Shown here in pieces: positions 7 through 11,461 of a stretch of 11,461 nt of DNA. This stretch comes from a virus. Its lineage: Duplodnaviria; Heunggongvirae; Uroviricota; Caudoviricetes. Location of the stretch: the IMG/VR virus record IMGVR_UViG_3300027151_000220; one strand, 5' to 3'. The notes beneath the pieces were generated by a model. It made no database searches. It was not told the DNA's origin and saw only the letters and a list, made by a program, of their open reading frames with translations. Every line of letters starts with the position of its first letter. The stretch's first letter is position 1. The position numbers were made by a program, and so were the translations under genes.

Positions 7-1479
7 ATGAGTTTATATAAGCTGGTTCTTAAAGGAGCCAATGATGTTGAGCAGGTTTTAGTTTATGACCCAATGACATCTGAGATGTTTTGGGAAGAAA
101 CAAAAGAAAAACCATCGCTGAGCCACATTTCTAATGGTTTGGAGTACCAAATTAATGCAAAAGTTTGGACTCCTGCCAAAGTAACAAACCCTCACGATCC
201 AGAACTCCACGGAAGAAAATCCAGAAAACCAACAACACTTAAGATTACTATGGGTCTTAAGTGTAATTATGCTTGCTCTTACTGCAATCAAGCACATCAA
301 CCTCATGATCCAGTAGGCGGACCAGATGACGCAGAAGATCTAGTTCGAAAAATGAAAGAAAATTTTCAGTTCGGAACTTATGATAGATTCCGTCTTGAAT
401 TTTGGGGTGGTGAACCAATGGTATATTGGAAGACCCTAAAACCTTTAGCTGAAAAGGTTAGAAAAGTTTATCCCAATGCACAGTTTATGATGGTAACCAA
501 TGGTTCTTTATTGGATAGAGAAAAGATTGATTGGTTTAATCGAATGGGATTTTCAATCGGTATGTCGCATGATGGACCATTACATGCTCAAAATCGTGGA
601 CCAGATCCACTTGATGAACCAAGAGCAAAAGATGCTGTAGTATATGCATTAAAAACTATGGGACAGGGAAGATTTACATTTAACTGTGTATTGACACGTG
701 AGAATGTATCAATACCAGCTGTTCGAGATTTTATTTGCGACAAGTTAAACAGAAAAGATTTTGGATATGAATATACTGAAATTTCTCAGATGGAACTGCA
801 AGTTACAACTGAAGAATTAATGTTACCGTATGATGATTCTGGAATGGCGCATTCTTTGCAAACCCCAGACGAGAAGAAAGAAATTCTACACAATTTATTC
901 TGGGAAACTATTCAAGGACAAAACCAGTTTAGCTGGACAGTCAATACAAAGATTACTGGATTTTTTGAATCGTTAGTTTATCAGAGACCAGCAGAAGTAG
1001 TTGGTCAAAAGTGCGGTATGGACAAAGAAGATAATATTGCCATCGATATGAAAGGTAATGTTACTACTTGCCAAAACACCTCTTCATTGACTAAACATAA
1101 TCTTGGTAATATTGAAGATTTTGATAATATTCGTTTGACCAATTCTTATCACTGGTCGACCAGAGCAGAGTGTCCTAGTTGTCCAGTAGTTCAACTGTGT
1201 CAGGGTGCTTGTTTATTCTTAGAAGATCAGTACTGGACTCAAGCGTGTGAGAATTTATTCTATTATAATCTTGCTATTCTTGCAGGTGCTCTATTCATTA
1301 TGACTGATGGATTAGTTTTGACGAGAATTGAAGGAGATAAGATTAGATTTAATGATGTTAAAACACTTGATGTTATTGATATTAATTTCGTCAAATCTAG
1401 CGGAACTCAAAAATCATGGAAAGTTCGTAAACCTCTGAACATTCCTGTGGTTACTGTTCCAGCAATGCCAGTAGTATAA
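7..1479 (+). CDS. Radical SAM protein with C-terminal SPASM domain (peptide/protein maturase-like)
   Basis: CNYACSYC = CxxxCxxC (C86/C90/C93, nt 262-285); FWGGEP SAM-binding motif; VTNGSLL and IGMSHDGP core motifs; seven SPASM cysteines C336, C355, C389, C392, C398, C402, C414 including Cx2Cx5Cx3C. The frame is open to the left edge (TTT ACA ATG), so the start at 7 is likely but not proven. Confidence 0.92.
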   Translation: MSLYKLVLKGANDVEQVLVYDPMTSEMFWEETKEKPSLSHISNGLEYQINAKVWTPAKVTNPHDPELHGRKSRKPTTLKITMGLKCNYACSYCNQAHQPHDPVGGPDDAEDLVRKMKENFQFGTYDRFRLEFWGGEPMVYWKTLKPLAEKVRKVYPNAQFMMVTNGSLLDREKIDWFNRMGFSIGMSHDGPLHAQNRGPDPLDEPRAKDAVVYALKTMGQGRFTFNCVLTRENVSIPAVRDFICDKLNRKDFGYEYTEISQMELQVTTEELMLPYDDSGMAHSLQTPDEKKEILHNLFWETIQGQNQFSWTVNTKITGFFESLVYQRPAEVVGQKCGMDKEDNIAIDMKGNVTTCQNTSSLTKHNLGNIEDFDNIRLTNSYHWSTRAECPSCPVVQLCQGACLFLEDQYWTQACENLFYYNLAILAGALFIMTDGLVLTRIEGDKIRFNDVKTLDVIDINFVKSSGTQKSWKVRKPLNIPVVTVPAMPVV

Positions 1480-1793
1480 TGGCGTTTCTTGATTGTATGA
1501 TTTGGGAACTGAATAAATTCCCAAGATATGGAAGATATAGAAATGGCTACACAATAGCCAATATCTTCCATTACTGTTCAGACACCAAGGAATACCAGAA
1601 TAATAATGTAAATATTCAAATTCCTGAATTTGAACTAATTGCAACACCAGAACAACTGCAATTTGTTTATAAATACAAAGAGCAGATTATTGATAACAAG
1701 ATTCCAGTAATACTGAATTCTATAAATAATGGTATAGAGACTTGGTCGGTAGACCTATTCAAAGCAAAATTTTTACAATACCTTAAAAGGTAA
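1479..1793 (+). CDS. Hypothetical protein (104 aa), translationally coupled to the radical SAM gene
   Basis: TAATG stop/start overlap at 1477-1481; fills the gap to the next RBS exactly; no family recognised. Confidence 0.75.
   Translation: MAFLDCMIWELNKFPRYGRYRNGYTIANIFHYCSDTKEYQNNNVNIQIPEFELIATPEQLQFVYKYKEQIIDNKIPVILNSINNGIETWSVDLFKAKFLQYLKR
1668..1675 (+). promoter_or_regulatory. T4-type late promoter consensus TATAAATA (upstream of dctP-like gene)
   Basis: Exact match inside the 104-aa ORF, about 130 nt before ATG 1807. Confidence 0.5.
1721..1728 (+). promoter_or_regulatory. T4-type late promoter consensus TATAAATA (upstream of dctP-like gene)
   Basis: Exact match, about 80 nt before ATG 1807. 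Confidence 0.6.
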
Positions 1794-1797
1794 GGAG
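1792..1797 (+). promoter_or_regulatory. Shine-Dalgarno AAGGAG for ORF 1807
   Basis: AAGGAG 9 nt upstream of the ATG. Confidence 0.8.
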
Positions 1798-1806
1798 AAC
1801 CAAAAA

Positions 1807-2754
1807 ATGAGTAAAAAGCACGTAAAATGGGTTATCGCCCACGAGCCAATCGGGCTATTTCTTAAGGTAGCTGAGTCGTTCGCTAAAGAAGTTAATGAGA
1901 AAACTAATGGTCAATTTGATATCGAAGTTCTTTCTCTAACTGCTTATGCTGAGAAATATAACGCTGGCAAGAAAATTAGCAAGAACGATTTAATGCAGAT
2001 GATTAATGATGGCACTATCGAAATGAGCCACATTTACACTACTTGGTTGGCAGACTACAACAAAGATCTAAACGCATTAGATCTACCATTCTTGTTCCGT
2101 GACCACGATCACGCTGACGCAGTTTTAGAAGGTGAAATTGGAACTCAACTATTGGCTGATGTAAGCAAGAATTCTAACATTCACGCTATGTCTTTCACTT
2201 ACTCTGGTGGTTATCGTGTTGTTCCAGCAAACTTTAAAGCTGACAGCGTAGACGCATGGAAGTTTAAGAAAGTTCGTACTAGCCGTTCTCCAGTTGCAAT
2301 CGATACTTTCAAGTTACTTGGTGCAAACACTTATCCAGGTATCGAACTTGAGCAAATGAATTCAGCTGCTAAAGAGGGTGTTATTAACGCAGGTGAATCA
2401 ACTTACGTTCGTATTTTCCCATTACAGCAAAACGAAGCATTTAAGTATGTTAACGACACTGCTCATAGCTTGTTCTTAACTTCTATTATCGTTAATAAAG
2501 ACTGGATGGCTCAGTTCGACGCAGAAACTAAAGAGATTATCTCTACTGCAGCATTTAATGCAGCACGTAAAGAGCGTCGTGAGTCTGTTGCTGACATTCC
2601 AAACATCCTTGCAGAGTGCGAAGCAAAAGGTGTTAAGGTTGTTAAGATGTCTGAGAAAGAAGAACAGAAATTTAAACAAGTTACTGCTAAAGTATATGAC
2701 ATGTACGCTGACTACTTTACTCCAGGTCTAGTAGAAAAAATCAAGCTACAGTAA
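1807..2754 (+). CDS. dctP: TRAP transporter substrate-binding protein (DctP family), lacking a signal peptide
   Basis: DctP-like segments FAKEVNEKTNGQFDIEV, GTIEM, LDLPFLFRDHDHA, SGGYR, KKVRT (conserved carboxylate-binding Arg position, R157), GESTY, TAHSLF and C-terminal VKVVKMSEKEEQKFK. Strong RBS; terminator follows. Confidence 0.88.
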   Translation: MSKKHVKWVIAHEPIGLFLKVAESFAKEVNEKTNGQFDIEVLSLTAYAEKYNAGKKISKNDLMQMINDGTIEMSHIYTTWLADYNKDLNALDLPFLFRDHDHADAVLEGEIGTQLLADVSKNSNIHAMSFTYSGGYRVVPANFKADSVDAWKFKKVRTSRSPVAIDTFKLLGANTYPGIELEQMNSAAKEGVINAGESTYVRIFPLQQNEAFKYVNDTAHSLFLTSIIVNKDWMAQFDAETKEIISTAAFNAARKERRESVADIPNILAECEAKGVKVVKMSEKEEQKFKQVTAKVYDMYADYFTPGLVEKIKLQ

Positions 2755-2760
2755 TACTGT

Positions 2761-2767
2761 CTAAATA
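2761..2767 (+). promoter_or_regulatory. Possible late promoter variant CTAAATA
   Basis: One mismatch to ATAAATA; intergenic, upstream of ORF 2817; the same heptamer recurs at 7812 and on the minus strand at 4547-4553. Confidence 0.45.
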
Positions 2768-2775
2768 CATTATGT

Positions 2776-2802
2776 AAGGGGATGTTTAGGCATCCCCTTT
2801 TT
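2776..2802 (+). terminator. Rho-independent terminator after dctP-like gene
   Basis: Stem AAGGGGATG (2776-2784) / CATCCCCTT (2791-2799), loop TTTAGG, T-run 2798-2802. Confidence 0.8.
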
Positions 2803-2816
2803 CATTTGGGGATTAT

Positions 2817-3896
2817 ATGAAGCAAATTTTATTTTACAATGTTGGATTCGTTAAACAAGTTGTTGACCAGCAACCTGAGATTTTAGATGGTTATCTTTTA
2901 GACAGAGATTTATTTTATTTTTATGACAAACATAAAATGAATCTTAATAATGTTTATGATAGAACAGGATCTATTCCACATTACCTAAACATTAAACCTG
3001 GACTATTGCAAATACCGAGTGTAGAGGGTTTTAACAAGTCATTTGCTCAATGTGTAGAAGAACGATGTAAACAACTTTTATCATTGGGTAAACGTATAAA
3101 TGTCGTTTGGAGTGGAGGTATTGATAGCACTTTAGTTCTCTGTGCGTTACTGCATTTTGCCAACGATCCAAAACAAATTGCTGTTTATGGAACATATACT
3201 TCCATACTAGAGTCTGGGGATTTTTTAGAGAAAAGAATTATCCCTAAAGGTGTAGATTTAAAAATTAAAGTTTCTTCGAATAGAGATTTTGATGATTGTT
3301 CAGAAAATGAGATATTTGTTACTGGGTTCTTTGGTAATCAGCTATTTGGACCAACTGATAATTTCTCAGTTAATCCTGCAGTAAAAACAAACATATCCTT
3401 TTTTCATCATCAATTTAATGGACCAGATCCATTGGACGACTATACGAAGTACATCGATCCAGAATTGCATGAGTTTATGTTACCATGCATTAATGCTAGT
3501 CCAAAGAAAATTGAAACCTTAAGAGATTTACGTTGGTGGTTTATTTTTAACTTGGATTGGTATACTGCTGAGTTTGCAACAAGAGTTAGTACAAGTCAGC
3601 AAGACAATCAATTTCACTTCTTTAATACAGACGACTTTCAGCGTTATGTGATTACAACTAAAGAACCATTCACTAAAGAAGTTGGAAACCCATTGACTCA
3701 TCGTTGGGTTATGAGGGAGTTAATCGAGGAGTGGAGTGGCGATAGCCATTATGCTTGGCAAAAACCAAAAGGGGTTTCCAATTTAGGAAACCCCGATCCG
3801 ACATGGCTACTTCTATTGGAAGATTATAGTGTGATTAAGTTACCACCCACATCTTTTGTAAACCAAACTAGAATTAACGTCCGAAACCAACCTTAA
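2817..3896 (+). CDS. Asparagine-synthase-like N-type ATP pyrophosphatase (adenine nucleotide alpha hydrolase), synthetase domain only
   Basis: PP-loop VVWSGGIDST (nt 3111-3128); FVTGFFGNQLFG (3321-3350) echoes the AsnB SGEGADELFG motif; no N-terminal Cys glutaminase domain; no QueC-type Zn cysteine cluster; GGGG RBS at 2808-2811. Confidence 0.75.
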   Translation: MKQILFYNVGFVKQVVDQQPEILDGYLLDRDLFYFYDKHKMNLNNVYDRTGSIPHYLNIKPGLLQIPSVEGFNKSFAQCVEERCKQLLSLGKRINVVWSGGIDSTLVLCALLHFANDPKQIAVYGTYTSILESGDFLEKRIIPKGVDLKIKVSSNRDFDDCSENEIFVTGFFGNQLFGPTDNFSVNPAVKTNISFFHHQFNGPDPLDDYTKYIDPELHEFMLPCINASPKKIETLRDLRWWFIFNLDWYTAEFATRVSTSQQDNQFHFFNTDDFQRYVITTKEPFTKEVGNPLTHRWVMRELIEEWSGDSHYAWQKPKGVSNLGNPDPTWLLLLEDYSVIKLPPTSFVNQTRINVRNQP

Positions 3897-4488
3897 TATT
3901 TAAAGTGACATAAGATTGGGTGTCTAGATTAGTTTCTGTATAACGCATCAAATGTCCAGGAGTTACATAAACTTCTCCAAATCTACCTTTGATTTGAAAT
4001 GAAGTTGCAACCAAATTCTGTGCAGCCAATTGACGTGTTGTAGTTACGCCACCACGAGGATCGGCGAAATATGTTGGTGGTGTATATTCGCCAGTGTGCA
4101 GAACAAACGTAAATACCAAAGGAACGTGTTCGTAACAATGTAGTGGAATGTGTTCTAATTTTTGTTGGAATAGAGCATTGGATCCAATAATAACAGGTGT
4201 ATATTGCATCTCATTGTTAAATTCTGGAAGATCTTGGCAAATAGTATAGACAATCTCTTTGAGTTTTTCTACATATTTGTTATCTTCTGTGAACATTAAA
4301 TCTGTAGTTACATTTGTTGAGCATGAATTGACCAAGTCAATAAAATCTTGATCGCTAAAGGTCAAATCATCCATCATTGTGGGATTTATGTCAAAACTCC
4401 GAAATTGTGTTGAGAATAATTCTTTTGCGAAAGATTCTGTTACCAGTTTATTGACTTGAATTTCGGGGGTGTTTTGGGTTGTTTCCAT
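3874..4488 (-). CDS. 2OG-Fe(II) oxygenase-fold protein (TIGR02466/PF13759-like) with non-canonical ligands
   Basis: YFADPRGG (4048-4068) and GEVYVTPGHL..Y.ETN match the family's FxDPR and GxxxxFPSWLxHxVxPN segments; the H-x-H/D site reads HCYEH. GGAGA RBS at 4493-4497 on the minus strand. Confidence 0.65.
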   Translation of the reverse strand: METTQNTPEIQVNKLVTESFAKELFSTQFRSFDINPTMMDDLTFSDQDFIDLVNSCSTNVTTDLMFTEDNKYVEKLKEIVYTICQDLPEFNNEMQYTPVIIGSNALFQQKLEHIPLHCYEHVPLVFTFVLHTGEYTPPTYFADPRGGVTTTRQLAAQNLVATSFQIKGRFGEVYVTPGHLMRYTETNLDTQSYVTLNIKVGFGR

Positions 4489-4532: not shown

Positions 4533-4540
4533 TATTTATA
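4533..4540 (-). promoter_or_regulatory. T4-type late promoter TATAAATA driving the minus-strand ORF
   Basis: Plus strand reads TATTTATA (exact reverse complement), intergenic, about 45 nt upstream of the start at 4488. Confidence 0.7.
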
Positions 4541-4939: not shown

Positions 4940-5191
4940 ATGGCAGATACAGTAGCAATAGTTCAGCCCGAAGAATCGTTACAAGTTGCAGTATCAGAAG
5001 GAACAATAGTTCTTTCTAATACCAACTTGGCTAACCCAGCTGTAGTAGAATCAATGTCTAATATTGCAGACGTTGATGTTACAACGAATGGAAAAACAAC
5101 TGGGTCAATATTGATTTACAGAGAAGCAACTCAAAAATGGACCGCCTCAACTACCTTAGATGCGCAAAACATGGAAGGTGGCTATTATTAA
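4940..5191 (+). CDS. Small virion/fibre adaptor-like protein ending in EGGYY
   Basis: TAATAATG junction with the previous gene; IADVDV...GSILIY...KW motif seen in phage fibre proteins; C-terminal EGGYY. Confidence 0.7.
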   Translation: MADTVAIVQPEESLQVAVSEGTIVLSNTNLANPAVVESMSNIADVDVTTNGKTTGSILIYREATQKWTASTTLDAQNMEGGYY

Positions 5192-5205
5192 ATGGAGAAT
5201 AACAG

Positions 5206-7815
5206 ATGGCATCAATAATCAGAATTAAGCGTTCGAGTGGAAGTTCCGCTCCAGCCACACTGGGTGATGGTGAGTTAGCCTACTCATCTGGCTCAGGTAA
5301 ATTATACATTGGTTTCGGTACTGAGGTATCGGGCAGTGCACCTCAACAAATCATCGGTGGTAAATTCTACACCGACCTATTATCTGGAACTGCAGGATCT
5401 TGGTCAACGCTAAGTGGTAAAGCAGTTATTCTTGATAACACAGGTAAGATTGACAAATTCCTAGTTGGTGGTTTAGCGTTTGGTGATGTAGCACCTAATA
5501 CAATTAGTGCAGTAAGTGGCGATATTACAATCGCTCCTAACTCTTCTACAGCAATCGTAAGAATCGCTGGTACAAACCAGATGATGATTCCTGCTGGTAC
5601 TACAGCACAAAGAACTACTCCTGCTTACGCTGGTGCAATTCGTTTCAATACAGATCAAAGTTCTTTTGAAGGATACTCAGGTTCCAACTGGTCATCACTA
5701 GGTGGTGTTCGTTCTGTTGATGGATTAACATACATTACTGCAGAATCTTCTCCAGGTGCTTCTGATGACACTCTAAGATTCTATACAGATGGCACTCTTG
5801 CCATGGCTCTAGACACAGATAGTCTAGACATTGAATCTAAAATTGCAACAGTTAATATTAATGCGACTACTGCTTCTTCTAGCACCGCTACAGGTGCATT
5901 AGTTGTTGATGGTGGTGTTGGTATTGCTGGCGATGTGTATATTGGTGGAAATTTAAGTATCGCTGGTACTGACTTAAATATCGGTAGCGTACAGTTTAAT
6001 CAAGGTTTAACTCTATCTGGTTCAACAACTCCTGCAACTGAATACTTCCGCATCACTGATGGTGCTGCAACACCAGTAACCAAGTTCTTAGTTGATACTG
6101 CAAACGGTAATACTTCTATTACTGGAACATTATCTGCAGGTGCTTCTACTCTTTCATCAGCAACTATTAGCAACAATGCTTCTGTTGGTGGAACTCTAGT
6201 AGTCACTGGCAATACAACACTTAATGGATCTTTAGCAGCTGGCGCATCGACTCTTGCTTCTGCTTCTGTAACAGGTAACGCAACTGTTGGTGGAACATTC
6301 GGTGTAACAGGTGCTACAACTCTAGCAGCATTAAGTGCTACAACTGGTTCTTTCTCTAGCACCCTATCATCTACTGGCGACTTCGCTGTCAATACAAACA
6401 AGTTTACTGTTACTGCAGCTTCTGGAAACACTTCTGTTGCAGGAACTTTAGCCGTAACTGGTGCTACAAACTTAAGTAATACTTTAGGTGTTACTGGAGC
6501 GACTACATTAGGTTCAACTCTTGGTGTAACTGGTGCTGCCACTTTCGCAAGTACTGCCAATGTTGATGGCAACTTCTCTATTGCAACTAATAAGTTTACA
6601 GTAGCTGCCACATCAGGTAATACAGCGATTGCTGGAACTCTTGGTGTTTCTGGAGTATCCAATCTTGCTGCATTAAATGCTACAGCAGGTAATTTCTCTA
6701 CAACTCTTGATGTAACTGGTGCTGCTACTTTCTCTAGCACAGTTTCTTCACTAGGAAACTTTGACGTTGGTACTAATAAGTTTACTGTCAATGCTACATC
6801 AGGTAATGCTCAAATTGCTGGTACATTAGGTTTAACTGGCGACTTAGCAATTAACGTAAACAAGTTTACAGTAGCTGCAACATCAGGTAATACAGCGATT
6901 GCTGGCACATTAACTGTATCTGGAGCTACTACGCTAAGTTCTAACTTAGCAATGAGTGGTAATACTATTACTGGTCTTGCTGATCCAGTAAACCCTCAAG
7001 ACGCTGCAACTAAGAACTATGTTGATGCTGCTCGTTCTGGTCTTGATGTTAAACAGTCAGTTCGTGTAACAACTACAGGAAATATTACTCTTTCTGGAAC
7101 TCAGACGATTGATGGAATCGCTGTTGTTTCTGGTGATCGTGTTCTTGTTAAAGACCAAACTACTGCTTCTCAAAACGGTATTTACGTTGTTGCGAACGGA
7201 TCTTGGTCTCGTGCATCAGATGCAGACGCAAACGCTGAAGTTACTTCTGGTTTATTTACTTTCGTTGAAGAAGGTAATACTCAAGCAGCAACTGGATGGG
7301 TATTAACTTCAACTGGAACACTAACAGTTGGAACTTCTCCATTAACATTCGGTTTATTCTCAATCACCAACAATATTGCTGCTGGTGCTGGTCTTATCAA
7401 GAATGGTAACCAATTTGACGTACAAGTTGGAACTGGTATCGCAATCGTTGCAGACACTGTAACTCTAGCTTCTACTGTTGCTGGTGCTGGTTTAACATTC
7501 ACTGGTGGTGTTGTTGATGTAGTTGGAACTGCAAACAGAATTACTGTCAATGCTGATAGTATTGACATCGCATCAACTTATATTGGTCAATCTTCTATTA
7601 CAACTTTAGGTACTATTACCACTGGTGTTTGGAATGGAACTACTATTGGTGCAGGGTATGGTGGTACTGGCGTATCAAGTTACTCTGTTGGTGATTTGTT
7701 GGTTGCTTCTGGTGCTTCTACTCTAAGTAAATTAAGTGTTGGTGTTTCAGGTAAAGTTCTACAGTCAAATGGAACTACTTTAGTCTACGGCGACGTAGAT
7801 GGCGGAACATACTAA
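5206..7815 (+). CDS. Tail/virion fibre protein (869 aa) with N-terminal IRIKRS..P..L..GELAY domain and internal repeats
   Basis: GGAGA RBS at 5194-5198; G/S/T/A-rich with no Cys or His seen; GTTAQR...GAIRFNT...FEGY..W motif; NKFTV repeats; GLADPVNPQDAATKNYVD and GDRVLVKDQ...QNGIYV fibre motifs; ends DGGTY. Confidence 0.85.
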   Translation: MASIIRIKRSSGSSAPATLGDGELAYSSGSGKLYIGFGTEVSGSAPQQIIGGKFYTDLLSGTAGSWSTLSGKAVILDNTGKIDKFLVGGLAFGDVAPNTISAVSGDITIAPNSSTAIVRIAGTNQMMIPAGTTAQRTTPAYAGAIRFNTDQSSFEGYSGSNWSSLGGVRSVDGLTYITAESSPGASDDTLRFYTDGTLAMALDTDSLDIESKIATVNINATTASSSTATGALVVDGGVGIAGDVYIGGNLSIAGTDLNIGSVQFNQGLTLSGSTTPATEYFRITDGAATPVTKFLVDTANGNTSITGTLSAGASTLSSATISNNASVGGTLVVTGNTTLNGSLAAGASTLASASVTGNATVGGTFGVTGATTLAALSATTGSFSSTLSSTGDFAVNTNKFTVTAASGNTSVAGTLAVTGATNLSNTLGVTGATTLGSTLGVTGAATFASTANVDGNFSIATNKFTVAATSGNTAIAGTLGVSGVSNLAALNATAGNFSTTLDVTGAATFSSTVSSLGNFDVGTNKFTVNATSGNAQIAGTLGLTGDLAINVNKFTVAATSGNTAIAGTLTVSGATTLSSNLAMSGNTITGLADPVNPQDAATKNYVDAARSGLDVKQSVRVTTTGNITLSGTQTIDGIAVVSGDRVLVKDQTTASQNGIYVVANGSWSRASDADANAEVTSGLFTFVEEGNTQAATGWVLTSTGTLTVGTSPLTFGLFSITNNIAAGAGLIKNGNQFDVQVGTGIAIVADTVTLASTVAGAGLTFTGGVVDVVGTANRITVNADSIDIASTYIGQSSITTLGTITTGVWNGTTIGAGYGGTGVSSYSVGDLLVASGASTLSKLSVGVSGKVLQSNGTTLVYGDVDGGTY
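6397..6905 (+). repeat. Four intragenic NKFTVxAxSGNxxI/VAGTL repeats, including a 44-nt near-perfect direct repeat
   Basis: Units start at 6397, 6589, 6775, 6859. Nt 6592-6635 and 6862-6905 match at 43/44 positions. A degenerate copy (TKFLVDTANGNTSITGTL) lies near 6080. Confidence 0.9.
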
Positions 7816-8568: not shown

Positions 8569-11461
8569 ATGGCACTCCAAATACAATTAAGACGTGGTAC
8601 ACATAGCCAACATAGTACATTCACAGGTGTCCTTGGTGAAGTAACAGTCAATACCACAAATAACTCTTTACATATGCATGATGGCACCAGTCCTGGTGGC
8701 CATGAATTAGCAAAAGTAAATTTCAGTAACGTAGCTTCTGGCGCAATCGCCAACTCTAAGCTAGCGAACTCAACAATTTCTGGTGTTGCTCTTGGCTCAA
8801 ACTTAGCAACATTAACTATCGGCACTGGTTTAACTGGTGCTGCTTATAATGGTTCATCTGCATCTACAGTTTCTCTAGCAGCTTCTGGCGTAACTGCTGG
8901 TTCTTATGGTTCTTCAACAGCAGTTCCTGTTTTAACCATCGATACATATGGTCGTGTAACTTTAGCAGGTACTGCTGCAATCTCAGGTGCTTTAACATTT
9001 ACTGGGGATGTTTCTGGTTCTGGAACAACTGGAACAACTACAACACTAACTCTTGCTACAGTTAATTCAAATGTAGGAACATTCACCAAACTAACAGTAA
9101 ACGGTAAGGGTCTTGTAACTGCAGCTTCAAATGCTACTACTGCAGATATTGCAGAGAGTGGTAATCTATATTACACTCAAGCCAGATTTGATTCTGCTTT
9201 TGCTGCCAAGTCAACAACTAATTTGGCAGAAGGAACAAATCTTTACTATACTCAAAATAGATTTGATGCTGCTCTTGGCGCAAAGACTACAGATAATTTA
9301 ACTGAAGGTTCGTCAAATCTATATTTCACTACTTCTCGTGCACGTGCTTCAGTTTCAGCAGGAACTGGAATTACATACAGTAATACTACTGGTGTAATTT
9401 CCACTGCACAAGATATTTCTACTACTTCTTCTCCAGTATTTGCTGCTATCACGTCAACAGGAGCAATAACTGCTGGAAGTTTAACTGTAAGTGGCGATTT
9501 AACTGTTAACGGAACGACTACTACTGTTAACTCTACTACACTAACAGTAGACGATAAAAATATTGAATTGGGTTCTGTTGCAAGTCCTTCTAATGCTACT
9601 GCTGATGGTGGTGGTATTACTCTTAAAGGTACTACTGACAAAACATTTAACTGGGTATCGGCAAGTGCAGCTTGGACTTCATCTGAACACTTAGCTTTAG
9701 CAGCAGGAAAAACTTTACTACTGAATGGTTCTACATCAGGAACTGTTACTGTTCAAGTTCCTGCAGCAGCTGGCGCAACAACCATCACTCTACCAGCTAC
9801 TACTGGTACTGTTGTTACAACAGGTGACACAGGAACTGTAACCAATGCAATGTTGGCTGGTTCAATCGCCAACGCAAAACTATCAAATAGTTCTGTAACA
9901 ATTAATGGTCAAACAGTATCTCTTGGTGGATCTACCACTGTTACAGCAACTGCTACAAACGCATTAACTATTGGAACTGGATTAACAGGAACATCTTATA
10001 ATGGATCATCTGCAGTAACTATCGGTATTGATTCAACTGTTGTTACTTTAACTGGAACACAGACTTTATCAAATAAGTCCTTATCTGATAGCACAACATA
10101 TTTTGTTGATGAAACAGATGCAACTAAAAAGATGCAAATTCAAGTATCAGGTATTACATCTGGTACTACACGAGTATTAACAGCACCAAACGTAGATGGT
10201 ACTATCGTCACAACTGGCGATACAGGAACTGTTACATCAGCAATGATTGCCAATGGCACTATTGTTAATGATGACATTAGTGCAACTGCAGCAATCGCAT
10301 CATCTAAGATTGCAGGTCTCGCTGCTTCCGCTACAACTGATACAACAAATGCATCAAATATTTCTTCAGGAACATTGGCAGCTGGAAGATTACCAGCATT
10401 CACTGGAGATGCAACTTCAAGTGCAGGATCTTCTGCTTTAACACTATCAGCATCTGGCGTTACTGCAGGAACTTATGGTTCTTCTACCGCAGTTCCTGTA
10501 TTGACTGTAGATGCTAAAGGTAGAATCACTGTTGCTTCTACCGCATCAATTTCTGGTGCAATTACTTTAAGTGGTGATGTTTCTGGAACTGGCACAACAG
10601 GTTCGACAACTAACGTCACTTTAGCAACAGTAAACTCAAATGTAGGAACATTTGGTTCTTCAACAGCGATTCCAACTATCACTGTAAATGCTAAAGGTTT
10701 GGTAACTGGTGTTTCTACAACTGCAGTATTCATTCCTTCAAGTTCTATTGCTGTTACTGGTGGCGATTTAACATTATCTGGAACCACTGGCGCAGATATA
10801 ACTAATGCGACTCTGGCAGCAACTGGTATCGGTGCTGGAACTTACACCAAGATTACTGTTGATACTAAAGGTCGTGCTACAGTAGGTGCACAAGCTACTA
10901 CTTCAGATATTGCTGAGGGAAGCAATCTTTATTATACAGATGCTCGTGCAAGAGCTGCTCATTCAGCTGGAACTGGTATTTCATATAACAGTGGCACTGG
11001 TGCGATTGCTGTAGATACATCCACTATCGCAACACAAACTTATGTTAATACAAAGGTAGCAGACTTAGTAGGTTCTACTCCTGCTACATTAGATACTTTA
11101 CAAGAGTTAGCGACAGCAATTGGCAACGATCCAAACTATGCTTCTACGCTAACTACTTTAGTTGGTACCAAATTAAATACTGCAGATTTTACTTCTACAG
11201 CAAATACTTGGCTTGGAACTAAGTCAACTACAAACTTAGCTGAAGGAACTAATCTTTATTTCACTAATGCGAGAGCAAGAAGTGCTATTAGTGCCAGTGG
11301 CAACTTATCTTATAACTCAACTACTGGTGTAATTAGTTATAGTAATCCAACTACAGATAGTGTTACAGAAGGTTCTACTAACCTTTATTTCACTACCACT
11401 AGAGCTAATACTGCATTTGATAATCGTTTAGGATCAAAATCTACTTCAGACCTCTCTGAAG
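8569..11461 (+). CDS. Long fibre protein, 3'-truncated (>964 aa), with Mtd N-terminal-like domain; absent from the ORF track
   Basis: Translated by hand: MALQIQLRRGTHSQHSTFTGVLGEVTVNTTNNSLHMHDGTSPGGHELAK..., no stop codon to the window end. The N-terminus resembles the Bordetella phage Mtd N-terminal domain (QFRGGT..QH..FTG..REITV...HDG.T.GG). Contains the PATLDTLQELATAIGNDPNYA fibre motif (about 11080-11142). AAGG RBS at 8559-8562. Confidence 0.9.
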   Translation, partial: MALQIQLRRGTHSQHSTFTGVLGEVTVNTTNNSLHMHDGTSPGGHELAKVNFSNVASGAIANSKLANSTISGVALGSNLATLTIGTGLTGAAYNGSSASTVSLAASGVTAGSYGSSTAVPVLTIDTYGRVTLAGTAAISGALTFTGDVSGSGTTGTTTTLTLATVNSNVGTFTKLTVNGKGLVTAASNATTADIAESGNLYYTQARFDSAFAAKSTTNLAEGTNLYYTQNRFDAALGAKTTDNLTEGSSNLYFTTSRARASVSAGTGITYSNTTGVISTAQDISTTSSPVFAAITSTGAITAGSLTVSGDLTVNGTTTTVNSTTLTVDDKNIELGSVASPSNATADGGGITLKGTTDKTFNWVSASAAWTSSEHLALAAGKTLLLNGSTSGTVTVQVPAAAGATTITLPATTGTVVTTGDTGTVTNAMLAGSIANAKLSNSSVTINGQTVSLGGSTTVTATATNALTIGTGLTGTSYNGSSAVTIGIDSTVVTLTGTQTLSNKSLSDSTTYFVDETDATKKMQIQVSGITSGTTRVLTAPNVDGTIVTTGDTGTVTSAMIANGTIVNDDISATAAIASSKIAGLAASATTDTTNASNISSGTLAAGRLPAFTGDATSSAGSSALTLSASGVTAGTYGSSTAVPVLTVDAKGRITVASTASISGAITLSGDVSGTGTTGSTTNVTLATVNSNVGTFGSSTAIPTITVNAKGLVTGVSTTAVFIPSSSIAVTGGDLTLSGTTGADITNATLAATGIGAGTYTKITVDTKGRATVGAQATTSDIAEGSNLYYTDARARAAHSAGTGISYNSGTGAIAVDTSTIATQTYVNTKVADLVGSTPATLDTLQELATAIGNDPNYASTLTTLVGTKLNTADFTSTANTWLGTKSTTNLAEGTNLYFTNARARSAISASGNLSYNSTTGVISYSNPTTDSVTEGSTNLYFTTTRANTAFDNRLGSKSTSDLSE
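8881..10653 (+). repeat. Duplicated 68-aa block inside the last fibre gene
   Basis: 8881-9084 vs 10450-10653 align without gaps, 53/68 aa identical by manual count. Confidence 0.9.
9148..11461 (+). repeat. Dispersed (I/L/V)xEG/SxxNLY(Y/F)TxxR repeats
   Basis: Copies start at 9148, 9223, 9298, 10909, 11236, 11362, plus a truncated one at 11452. Confidence 0.85.

Follow-up and report, generated by a model that had tools for sequence, protein, structure and literature searches.

The phosphate-binding protein PstS carried by cyanophages integrates into the PstCAB uptake system of the host, using host PstCA (bioRxiv 10.1101/2021.07.20.453049). In Bordetella and its relatives, orphan binding proteins of the tripartite tricarboxylate transporter (TTT)/Bug (TctC) family still undergo export and are believed to supply transporters whose genes lie elsewhere (PMC5812351). 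The binding proteins of TRAP (tripartite ATP-independent periplasmic) transporters carry a strand arginine that is their hallmark carboxylate ligand, conserved in 96.8% of them (PMC5812351). The present work concerns a phage-borne homologue of the latter proteins, of the DctP family. Its gene occupies positions 1807-2754 (plus strand) of an 11,461-nucleotide stretch of DNA, hereafter the window, from the IMG/VR virus record IMGVR_UViG_3300027151_000220; this stretch corresponds to the minus strand of a 30,276-bp viral contig between positions 16778 and 28238. No description of leaderless phage DctP was found in the searchable literature, and a paper on pelagimyophages (PMC7029224) mentions neither TRAP nor DctP. 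Comparison of sequences and predicted structures led us to favour, on balance, the view that the protein is an abundant cytoplasmic organic-acid binder working with an AsnB-like enzyme encoded next to it.

Leader, fold and membrane partners of the phage protein

The open reading frame (ORF) specifies a leaderless DctP-family solute-binding protein of 315 amino acids with the N-terminus MSKKHVKWVIAHEP. An earlier note on this DNA, made from its letters alone, had stated that the protein has no signal peptide and that an in-frame TAG at 1750-1752, with no alternative start, rules out a leader upstream; both statements were confirmed. No ATG, GTG, TTG, CTG or ATN codon lies between this TAG and the DctP-type ATG, the 18 codons separating the two are hydrophilic, and a further ten in-frame stops, comprising all three kinds, occur within 330 nt, bringing the upstream total to 11. 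The Kyte-Doolittle maximum over 10 residues in the first 40 amino acids is 1.29, against 2.0-3.6 in leader-bearing relatives. The first strand of the AlphaFold2 (AF2) model is formed by residues 4-10, HMMER aligned residue 20 with residue 19 of mature SiaP, and relatives with leaders carry 20-35 extra residues in the alignment. In all 79 phage orthologues the start is found 3-8 residues ahead of the WVIAHEP motif. The mature-type sequence beginning with VKW, which the earlier note had placed at residue 5, actually starts at residue 6. Given the 11 upstream stops and the lack of a hydrophobic N-terminal segment, a Sec, Tat or lipoprotein signal at this N-terminus is, judging from the sequence, impossible.

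Leaders of the classical type are found elsewhere in related phages. A related phage contig of 206 kb (L004) encodes three TctC-type binding proteins that start with classical signal peptides (MKKFLATLLLATTAFVAHA, MIKKLIIGVLGALAISANA and MNLKPLVAALVTAFTLQVGIANA), unlike the DctP homologue of the same contig, which has none. Since the TctC-type proteins keep their signal peptides, this phage lineage appears to employ leaders where export is wanted. The three TctC/Bug-family genes lie at 5099-6004, 6001-6894 and 9610-10536 with no TctA or TctB seen nearby, and the encoded proteins may act as true exported receptors supplying transporters of the host.

The protein matched Pfam family PF03480 with 150 bits (cut-off 23.4; E 1.2e-43) and the NCBIfam model NF037995 (TRAP_S1) with 121 bits (cut-off 50); the cut-off of TIGR00787 was not reached (114.6 versus 175). 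The AF2 model has a pLDDT of 97.4 and, in Foldseek searches, matched more than 50 TRAP binding-protein structures with TM-scores of 0.85-0.88 and E values of 1e-24 to 1e-26. With matches such as IseP, 4p8b, 4pak and SiaP it shares the two-domain type II fold with a long spanning helix, and no extra domain beyond the binding fold was found in the 315 residues. As modelled, the phage protein is thus a complete DctP-fold binding protein. Residue R157 was aligned with the arginine of the K-I-R strand in 4xfe, 4p47 and 4ovr; its equivalence to R147 of SiaP is based on the motif and on a review (PMC5812351). R157 is among the 54 positions that are invariant in 62 distinct phage orthologues. A special metal site formed by the invariant residues H12, H100, H102 and H220 was considered and rejected, the FRDHDH motif being present in the ordinary binding protein 4xfe as well.

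The median pairwise dN/dS among phage orthologues is 0.10 (297 pairs); the gene is under purifying selection. Matches to the family numbered 2,233 in 90% clusters, the closest nearly all of about 315 amino acids; the family is present in at least 458 IMG/VR contigs. In PHROG, the sole match was phrog_31178, annotated as 'unknown function'.

The earlier note had also pointed to the absence of dctQ and dctM from the window. No DctM was found in the 30-kb contig either, which is weak evidence, the contig being 16% complete according to CheckV. The search could be extended to four complete relatives of 170-174 kb, which carry a DctP orthologue with 76-79% identity, are rated 100% complete by CheckV and in three cases have terminal repeats; neither DctM nor DctQ was found in them. 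An exhaustive profile-free search retrieved 5,510 relatives, the nearest of which form a clade with W-V-(I/L)-A-H-E-P at the first strand; among the representatives listed many are leader-bearing and many leaderless. None of 20 polytopic membrane proteins encoded near genes of this clade matched DctM or DctQ: 14 matched the major facilitator superfamily (MFS), membrane-bound O-acyltransferase (MBOAT), ATP-binding cassette (ABC) permease, Kup, CDF, MgtE or fatty-acid hydroxylase families and six matched no family. DctM was absent from four of the five bacterial genomes carrying clade members, the fifth having it on another contig. Because neither subunit was found among the neighbours and most carrier genomes tested lack DctM, the clade is independent of DctQM even in cells. 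The phage protein could in principle use a host DctQM, which would require export, and no route is visible.

Linkage to a PP-loop gene, expression and candidate roles

The gene immediately downstream (2817-3896, plus strand) encodes an AsnB-like PP-loop ATP pyrophosphatase of 359 amino acids, proposed as the partner of the binding protein on the basis of its SGGIDS motif, fold matches and adjacency. The motif (S99, G100, G101, D103, S104) is invariant among 52 homologues. A profile of the family, compared with the PDB, matched LarE, nitrile synthetase, NAD synthase and AsnB through the motif region. The predicted model (pLDDT 89.5) had carbapenam synthetase, AsnB, beta-lactam synthetase and McjC as its best Foldseek matches, and these cover the C-terminal synthetase halves of the targets (residues 224-449 of CarA, for example). 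The N-terminal Ntn glutaminase domain is absent, only about 90 residues preceding the PP-loop. Neighbouring clusters in the ESM Atlas carry the automatic name 'asparagine synthase family'. Lacking the glutaminase domain and any Pfam match, the protein is no more than a probable member of the asparagine-synthetase-like class. A role in 7-deazaguanine synthesis (QueC) was discarded: the weak phrog_1550 match comprises the 23 residues of the PP-loop alone and the fold matches favour the AsnB class. AsnB-class enzymes consume ATP to adenylate a carboxylate, after which an amide or a lactam is formed. Since its closest folds all adenylate carboxylates, the predicted chemistry of the PP-loop protein would suit a carboxylate-binding partner.

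In 80 phage loci the commonest companion of the DctP gene is the PP-loop gene or a 25%-identical paralogue of 415-440 amino acids. Among the 66 loci in which DctP is flanked by no less than 1.5 kb on each side, one or the other is found nearby in 56 and directly adjacent in 47. Two gene orders occur. In the first, that of the window, the plus strand reads radical S-adenosylmethionine (rSAM)/SPASM gene, a small ORF of 104 amino acids, DctP homologue, PP-loop gene and then tail-fibre-like genes. In the second, the PP-loop gene is upstream of DctP and preceded by a gene for a 260-amino-acid protein; here the neighbours are metabolic (FkbM methyltransferase, fatty-acid desaturase, NMO-like and 2-oxoglutarate (2OG) oxygenase genes), not fibre genes. 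A block containing the PP-loop and leaderless DctP genes is present in the phages L004 and L082, in part in L105 and L150, and on a 242-kb contig of the bacterium Pseudobdellovibrio. The order on the latter is AMP-ligase, short-chain dehydrogenase (SDR), beta-keto acid cleavage enzyme (BKACE), 254-amino-acid protein, PP-loop protein and leaderless DctP, with MBOAT and pyridoxal phosphate (PLP)-enzyme genes adjoining. Because the linkage survives a change of gene order and recurs on a bacterial contig, it argues for a coupling between the binding protein and the PP-loop enzyme.

The AMP-ligase, SDR and BKACE genes precede the pair at L004:92-3064 in phage and at L153:1-3008 in Pseudobdellovibrio. 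This upstream block hints at a beta-hydroxy or beta-keto acid as the DctP ligand. The L004 contig has a region of tailoring enzymes unusually rich for a T4-like phage; its products, encoded at 11863-13293 and 16531-17904, include a radical SAM protein of the B12-binding kind, which matched the PhpK-type P-methyltransferase model weakly (77 bits; cut-off 600), and a carbamoyltransferase.

The earlier note had described the DctP gene as a strongly expressed late unit bracketed by two exact copies of a sequence box, an AAGGAG site and a strong terminator. All of these signals are present, on the plus strand, and have counterparts across the related loci. The T4-type late-promoter box TATAAATA is matched exactly at 1668-1675 (distal copy, inside the 3′ part of the 1479-1793 ORF) and at 1721-1728 (proximal copy, 78 nt before the DctP ATG). 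The Shine-Dalgarno sequence AAGGAG is at 1792-1797, 9 nt before the ATG. An intrinsic terminator at 2776-2804, identified by a terminator scan and folding, consists of a GC-rich 10-bp stem (2776-2799) with a 4-nt loop, followed by a T run (minimum free energy -16.8 kcal/mol, z -2.3). The window holds four copies of TATAAATA for 0.81 expected, every one of them upstream of a gene start and in the correct orientation, and two of the four precede the DctP gene. In the whole contig, nine of the ten copies of NATAAATA fall within 100 nt upstream of gene starts; the genes so preceded include those for sheath, scaffold, fibre, rSAM and 2OG proteins. T4-type late promoters are expected to be distributed in just this way. 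Among the phage orthologues, ATAAATA occurs no more than 200 nt upstream in 72 of 79 loci, GGAG or GGA-type sites are found at the corresponding place, and a hairpin with a T run follows the gene in 64 of 78.

Codon usage shows a strong bias. The phage DctP gene has a codon adaptation index (CAI) of 0.739 and an effective number of codons (Nc) of 34.8, and uses CGT, ACT and CCA to the extent of 100% each. Its CAI equals those of the sheath (0.736) and tube (0.725) genes and exceeds those of the rSAM (0.654), PP-loop (0.598) and 2OG (0.595) genes, bearing out the impression of codons typical of highly expressed genes; across loci, the median fraction of C-ending codons is 0.45 for DctP versus 0.26-0.32 for the rSAM, PP-loop and 2OG genes. 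Thus, the gene does have its own boxes, ribosome-binding site, terminator and codon bias, as the note had it, and from the motifs and codons we infer that expression is late and high; the strength and timing that the note had stated outright stand in this qualified form.

The above data can be accommodated as follows. A soluble carboxylate binder with the DctP (Venus-flytrap) fold would be produced late, in near-stoichiometric amounts, and would not leave the infected cell's cytoplasm. It would not be a subunit of a transporter but would have as its partner the adjacent AsnB-like PP-loop enzyme, which would use ATP to adenylate a carboxylate and then make an amide or a lactam. The binder might capture, hold or present the organic-acid substrate of this reaction, or else sequester its product. 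Taken as a whole, we consider this reading somewhat better than an even proposition; the cytoplasmic location, the class of ligand and the functional or physical coupling to the enzyme are all parts of it that we infer. Of the three roles offered in the earlier note (ligand sensor or sink, substrate carrier for the neighbouring enzymes, virion protein), that of carrier is the best supported, for the PP-loop enzyme (47/66 adjacent) and not for the rSAM enzyme, which probably serves a 369-amino-acid protein of the fibre cluster.

Several observations weigh against such a role. In the wider clade only 60 of the 132 representatives retain the arginine equivalent to R157, so that carboxylate binding would not be universal in it. 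The PP-loop protein gave weak fold matches (TM-scores 0.3-0.45, E 1e-4 to 1e-5) and matched no Pfam family, Asn_synthase PF00733 included, and no NCBIfam model. In 10 of the 66 loci a PP-loop gene was not found within 6 kb of DctP. With its own promoter and terminator, the DctP gene in the window is not obviously co-transcribed with the PP-loop gene, and high expression fits a carrier no better than it does a sponge or a structural protein. The predicted complex of DctP with the PP-loop protein scored 0.20, the mark being 0.32, and speaks neither for nor against binding.

Among the alternatives, the protein might be a free-standing cytoplasmic sponge which, independently of any enzyme, sequesters a host metabolite or a small signalling acid and so re-routes metabolism or blunts a host response. 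The intact binding fold with its invariant arginine would serve such a function, for which the gene's own promoter and terminator and its very high codon adaptation suggest a stoichiometric role; moreover, 10 loci have no PP-loop gene nearby, and the homologue of the distant phage L008 is placed between genes for structure and for replication, in an annotated stretch where neither a PP-loop nor an asparagine-synthase gene was called. However, a sponge leaves unexplained why the linkage to the PP-loop gene (47 of 66 adjacent) is independent of order and why the same pairing recurs in a bacterium, and late-type promoter boxes are poorly suited to countering an early host response. We therefore regard this alternative as unlikely.

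Somewhat less credible again is a protein of the virion or of fibre assembly, in which the binding fold would serve on or with tail fibres, for instance by recognising an acidic sugar of the host surface or by aiding fibre maturation, and which would account for late, strong expression in the fibre region. In the window the gene does lie between a presumed fibre-maturation rSAM gene and fibre genes, its late-promoter boxes and codon bias are like those of the sheath, tube and fibre genes, and some DctP proteins bind sialic-acid-type sugars, as the SiaP matches recall. Yet the 315 residues comprise the binding fold only, with no attachment domain; the genes around the pair in other phages are of methyltransferase, desaturase, NMO-like and 2OG types and not fibre genes; the pair is also found on a bacterial contig with metabolic enzymes; and the PHROG search gave no structural family. 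The metabolic setting of the pair in other phages and the lack of a further domain accordingly weaken the suggestion, made in the note, of a virion-packaged protein.

Finally, an uptake auxiliary like cyanophage PstS, reaching the periplasm by a non-classical route and feeding a host TRAP transporter, would agree with family and fold, has the precedent of a phage binding protein that uses host membrane parts (bioRxiv 10.1101/2021.07.20.453049) and would not need a DctQM of its own, but is most improbable given an N-terminus that excludes Sec, Tat and lipoprotein signals and is leaderless in all 79 orthologues, the leaders kept by TctC proteins of a related phage, and a clade with no DctQM linkage even in bacteria, where most tested carrier genomes lack DctM.

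Bacterial relatives and the remaining genes of the contig

A search of species-representative genomes for related loci, run on a 12-row alignment, located the clade chiefly in Bdellovibrionota and also in Elusimicrobiota, Myxococcota and a few metagenome-assembled genomes (MAGs) of Pseudomonadota. Leader states were assigned by hand from the N-termini, with three rows undecided and relatives sharing labels. Exported bacterial copies had Dlt/ABC-like neighbours in all 11 assigned loci, and such neighbours never occurred with leaderless copies; an AsnB-like PP-loop neighbour (7/7) and an MFS neighbour (5/5) were found with leaderless bacterial copies only. The neighbours of exported copies are an AMP-ligase, a 72-amino-acid carrier-like protein, an MBOAT protein and an NMT1-type ABC system, in a Dlt-like arrangement. 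This set, with the AMP-ligase resembling DltA and the MBOAT protein DltB, accompanies DctP in the Bdellovibrionota loci L007, L019, L022, L023, L033, L036, L039, L041 and L043. The arrangement suggests that the exported Bdellovibrionota members take part in envelope modification rather than in TRAP uptake. In a leaderless bacterial sub-clade (L014, L016, L020, L021, L024 and L048) the DctP gene follows an MFS transporter gene at a distance of 0.6 kb.

In a maximum-likelihood tree of 71 sequences, a quick one rooted at the midpoint, all phage copies and most leaderless bacterial copies formed a single clade with an SH-aLRT value of 88, which is nested within the exported copies of Bdellovibrionota; with the hand-assigned states, two changes of leader state suffice on this tree. 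Two 71%-identical leaderless DctP genes from MAGs assigned to Saccharibacteria (L009) and Nomurabacteria (L010) are nested inside the phage clade and, for this reason, probably come from phage contigs mis-binned into MAGs of the candidate phyla radiation. The earlier note took the protein to be repurposed; repurposing by the phage proved too narrow a view, since the bacterial clade too is without DctQM and a leaderless copy resides on the 242-kb Pseudobdellovibrio contig.

A more far-reaching proposal, which we put forward only tentatively and hold to be doubtful as it stands, would turn the solute-binding protein into a subunit dedicated to capturing the substrate of a soluble ATP-dependent amidoligase, which would make the latter a "binding-protein-dependent enzyme", a term modelled on binding-protein-dependent transporters. 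The pair would stem from the exported, Dlt-associated orphan DctP clade of the predatory Bdellovibrionota and would be spreading through hundreds of aquatic T4-like phages, where it would make or trap a modified organic acid late in infection.

The remaining genes of the 30,276-bp contig include those for T4-type neck, terminase, sheath, tube, portal, prohead protease and scaffold proteins. Identity of the portal to that of any GenBank phage does not exceed 56%, Methylophilales phage Melnitz and Pelagibacter phage Mosig coming first, and reaches about 49% with cyanomyoviruses. With a T4-type gene set and a portal this divergent, the source virus is an uncultured aquatic T4-like myovirus. Several related contigs came from freshwater MAG sets. 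The window gave no megablast match to GenBank phages, and tblastn with the DctP-type protein produced only matches of no more than 25% identity, in mis-labelled bacterial fragments; there is therefore no cultured relative and no virion proteome for comparison.

Upstream of the small ORF, a gene at 7-1479 (plus strand; PF04055) encodes a radical SAM/SPASM maturase-like enzyme. Its matches to maturase models for ribosomally synthesized and post-translationally modified peptides (RiPPs), those of the PapB/DynA type and for PapB-type ranthipeptides included, were below the cut-offs. Just upstream of the rSAM gene is an ORF of 369 amino acids (L003:278-1387:-) whose C-terminal end, NCNCNCACNCNCACNCNC, contains Asn-Cys repeats. 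The rSAM gene accompanies DctP in only 44 of the 80 loci. On account of the repeat end of the adjoining ORF and this limited co-occurrence, the enzyme probably matures the 369-amino-acid fibre-cluster protein and is not tied to DctP; the two resemble an enzyme-substrate pair of the fibre region, separate from the DctP question.

The conserved 104-amino-acid ORF between the rSAM and DctP genes (1479-1793, plus strand), which holds both promoter boxes, belongs to no known family: it matched nothing in Pfam, PHROG or NCBIfam. In 24 of the 80 loci a homologue with 30-76% identity is found at the corresponding place. On the minus strand, a 2OG-Fe(II) oxygenase-like gene (3874-4488; phrog_81, E 7e-6) is convergent with the PP-loop gene and overlaps its 3′ end by 23 nt (3874-3896); it has its own TATAAATA box at 4533-4540, and a gene of this kind is found in 17 of the 80 loci. 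Tail-fibre-like genes, recognised from gene calls and library scans of the window, follow on the plus strand from 4605 onward.

Comparison with known systems

What is new here comprises a DctQM-independent clade in bacteria, the split of its neighbourhoods by leader state, the tree and the check in complete genomes, together with the finding that promoter, terminator and codon bias are conserved from locus to locus. The database name of the family is 'TRAP-type C4-dicarboxylate transport system substrate-binding protein', and viral-ecology surveys relying on it would count these genes as nutrient-uptake auxiliary genes; for this family, found in no fewer than 458 IMG/VR contigs, that is probably a mistake. 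Should the proposed role be correct, the protein would clearly exemplify the recruitment of a transporter receptor to the cytoplasm as the companion of an enzyme, the binding-protein fold would have been put to a new use, and the gene would provide a handle on a widespread phage pathway with an AsnB-like enzyme, sometimes joined by BKACE, SDR and AMP-ligase genes. The wider clade itself represents an unrecognised, DctQM-independent branch of DctP proteins, the exported members of which accompany Dlt-like envelope-modification genes in Bdellovibrionota.

As in cyanophage PstS, a homologue of a periplasmic binding protein is borne by a phage that encodes no membrane subunits for it. Unlike PstS, the phage DctP lacks a way into the periplasm, comes from a clade that is not linked to transporters and differs in family and class of ligand. 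The orphan TctC/Bug proteins resemble it in being carboxylate binders with no membrane partners nearby, sometimes encoded beside enzymes that act on carboxylates, whereas the phage protein is leaderless and of a different family, DctP. The PP-loop protein, for its part, shares SGGxDS and its best fold matches with class-B asparagine-synthetase-like enzymes (AsnB, beta-lactam and carbapenam synthetases and the lasso cyclase McjC), and departs from them in having no glutaminase domain, no Pfam Asn_synthase match and low TM-scores (0.3-0.45). We know of no characterised AsnB-class enzyme reported to use a solute-binding protein as a partner. Compared with the DctP-type TRAP binding proteins (SiaP 2cex/3b50, IseP 8t9t and the EFI targets 4xfe, 4p8b and 4pak), the phage protein stands apart by the lack of a signal peptide and of DctQ and DctM and by the cytoplasmic ATP-dependent enzyme that is its neighbour; what it has in common with them is the two-domain fold over its whole length and the arginine on the strand of domain 2.

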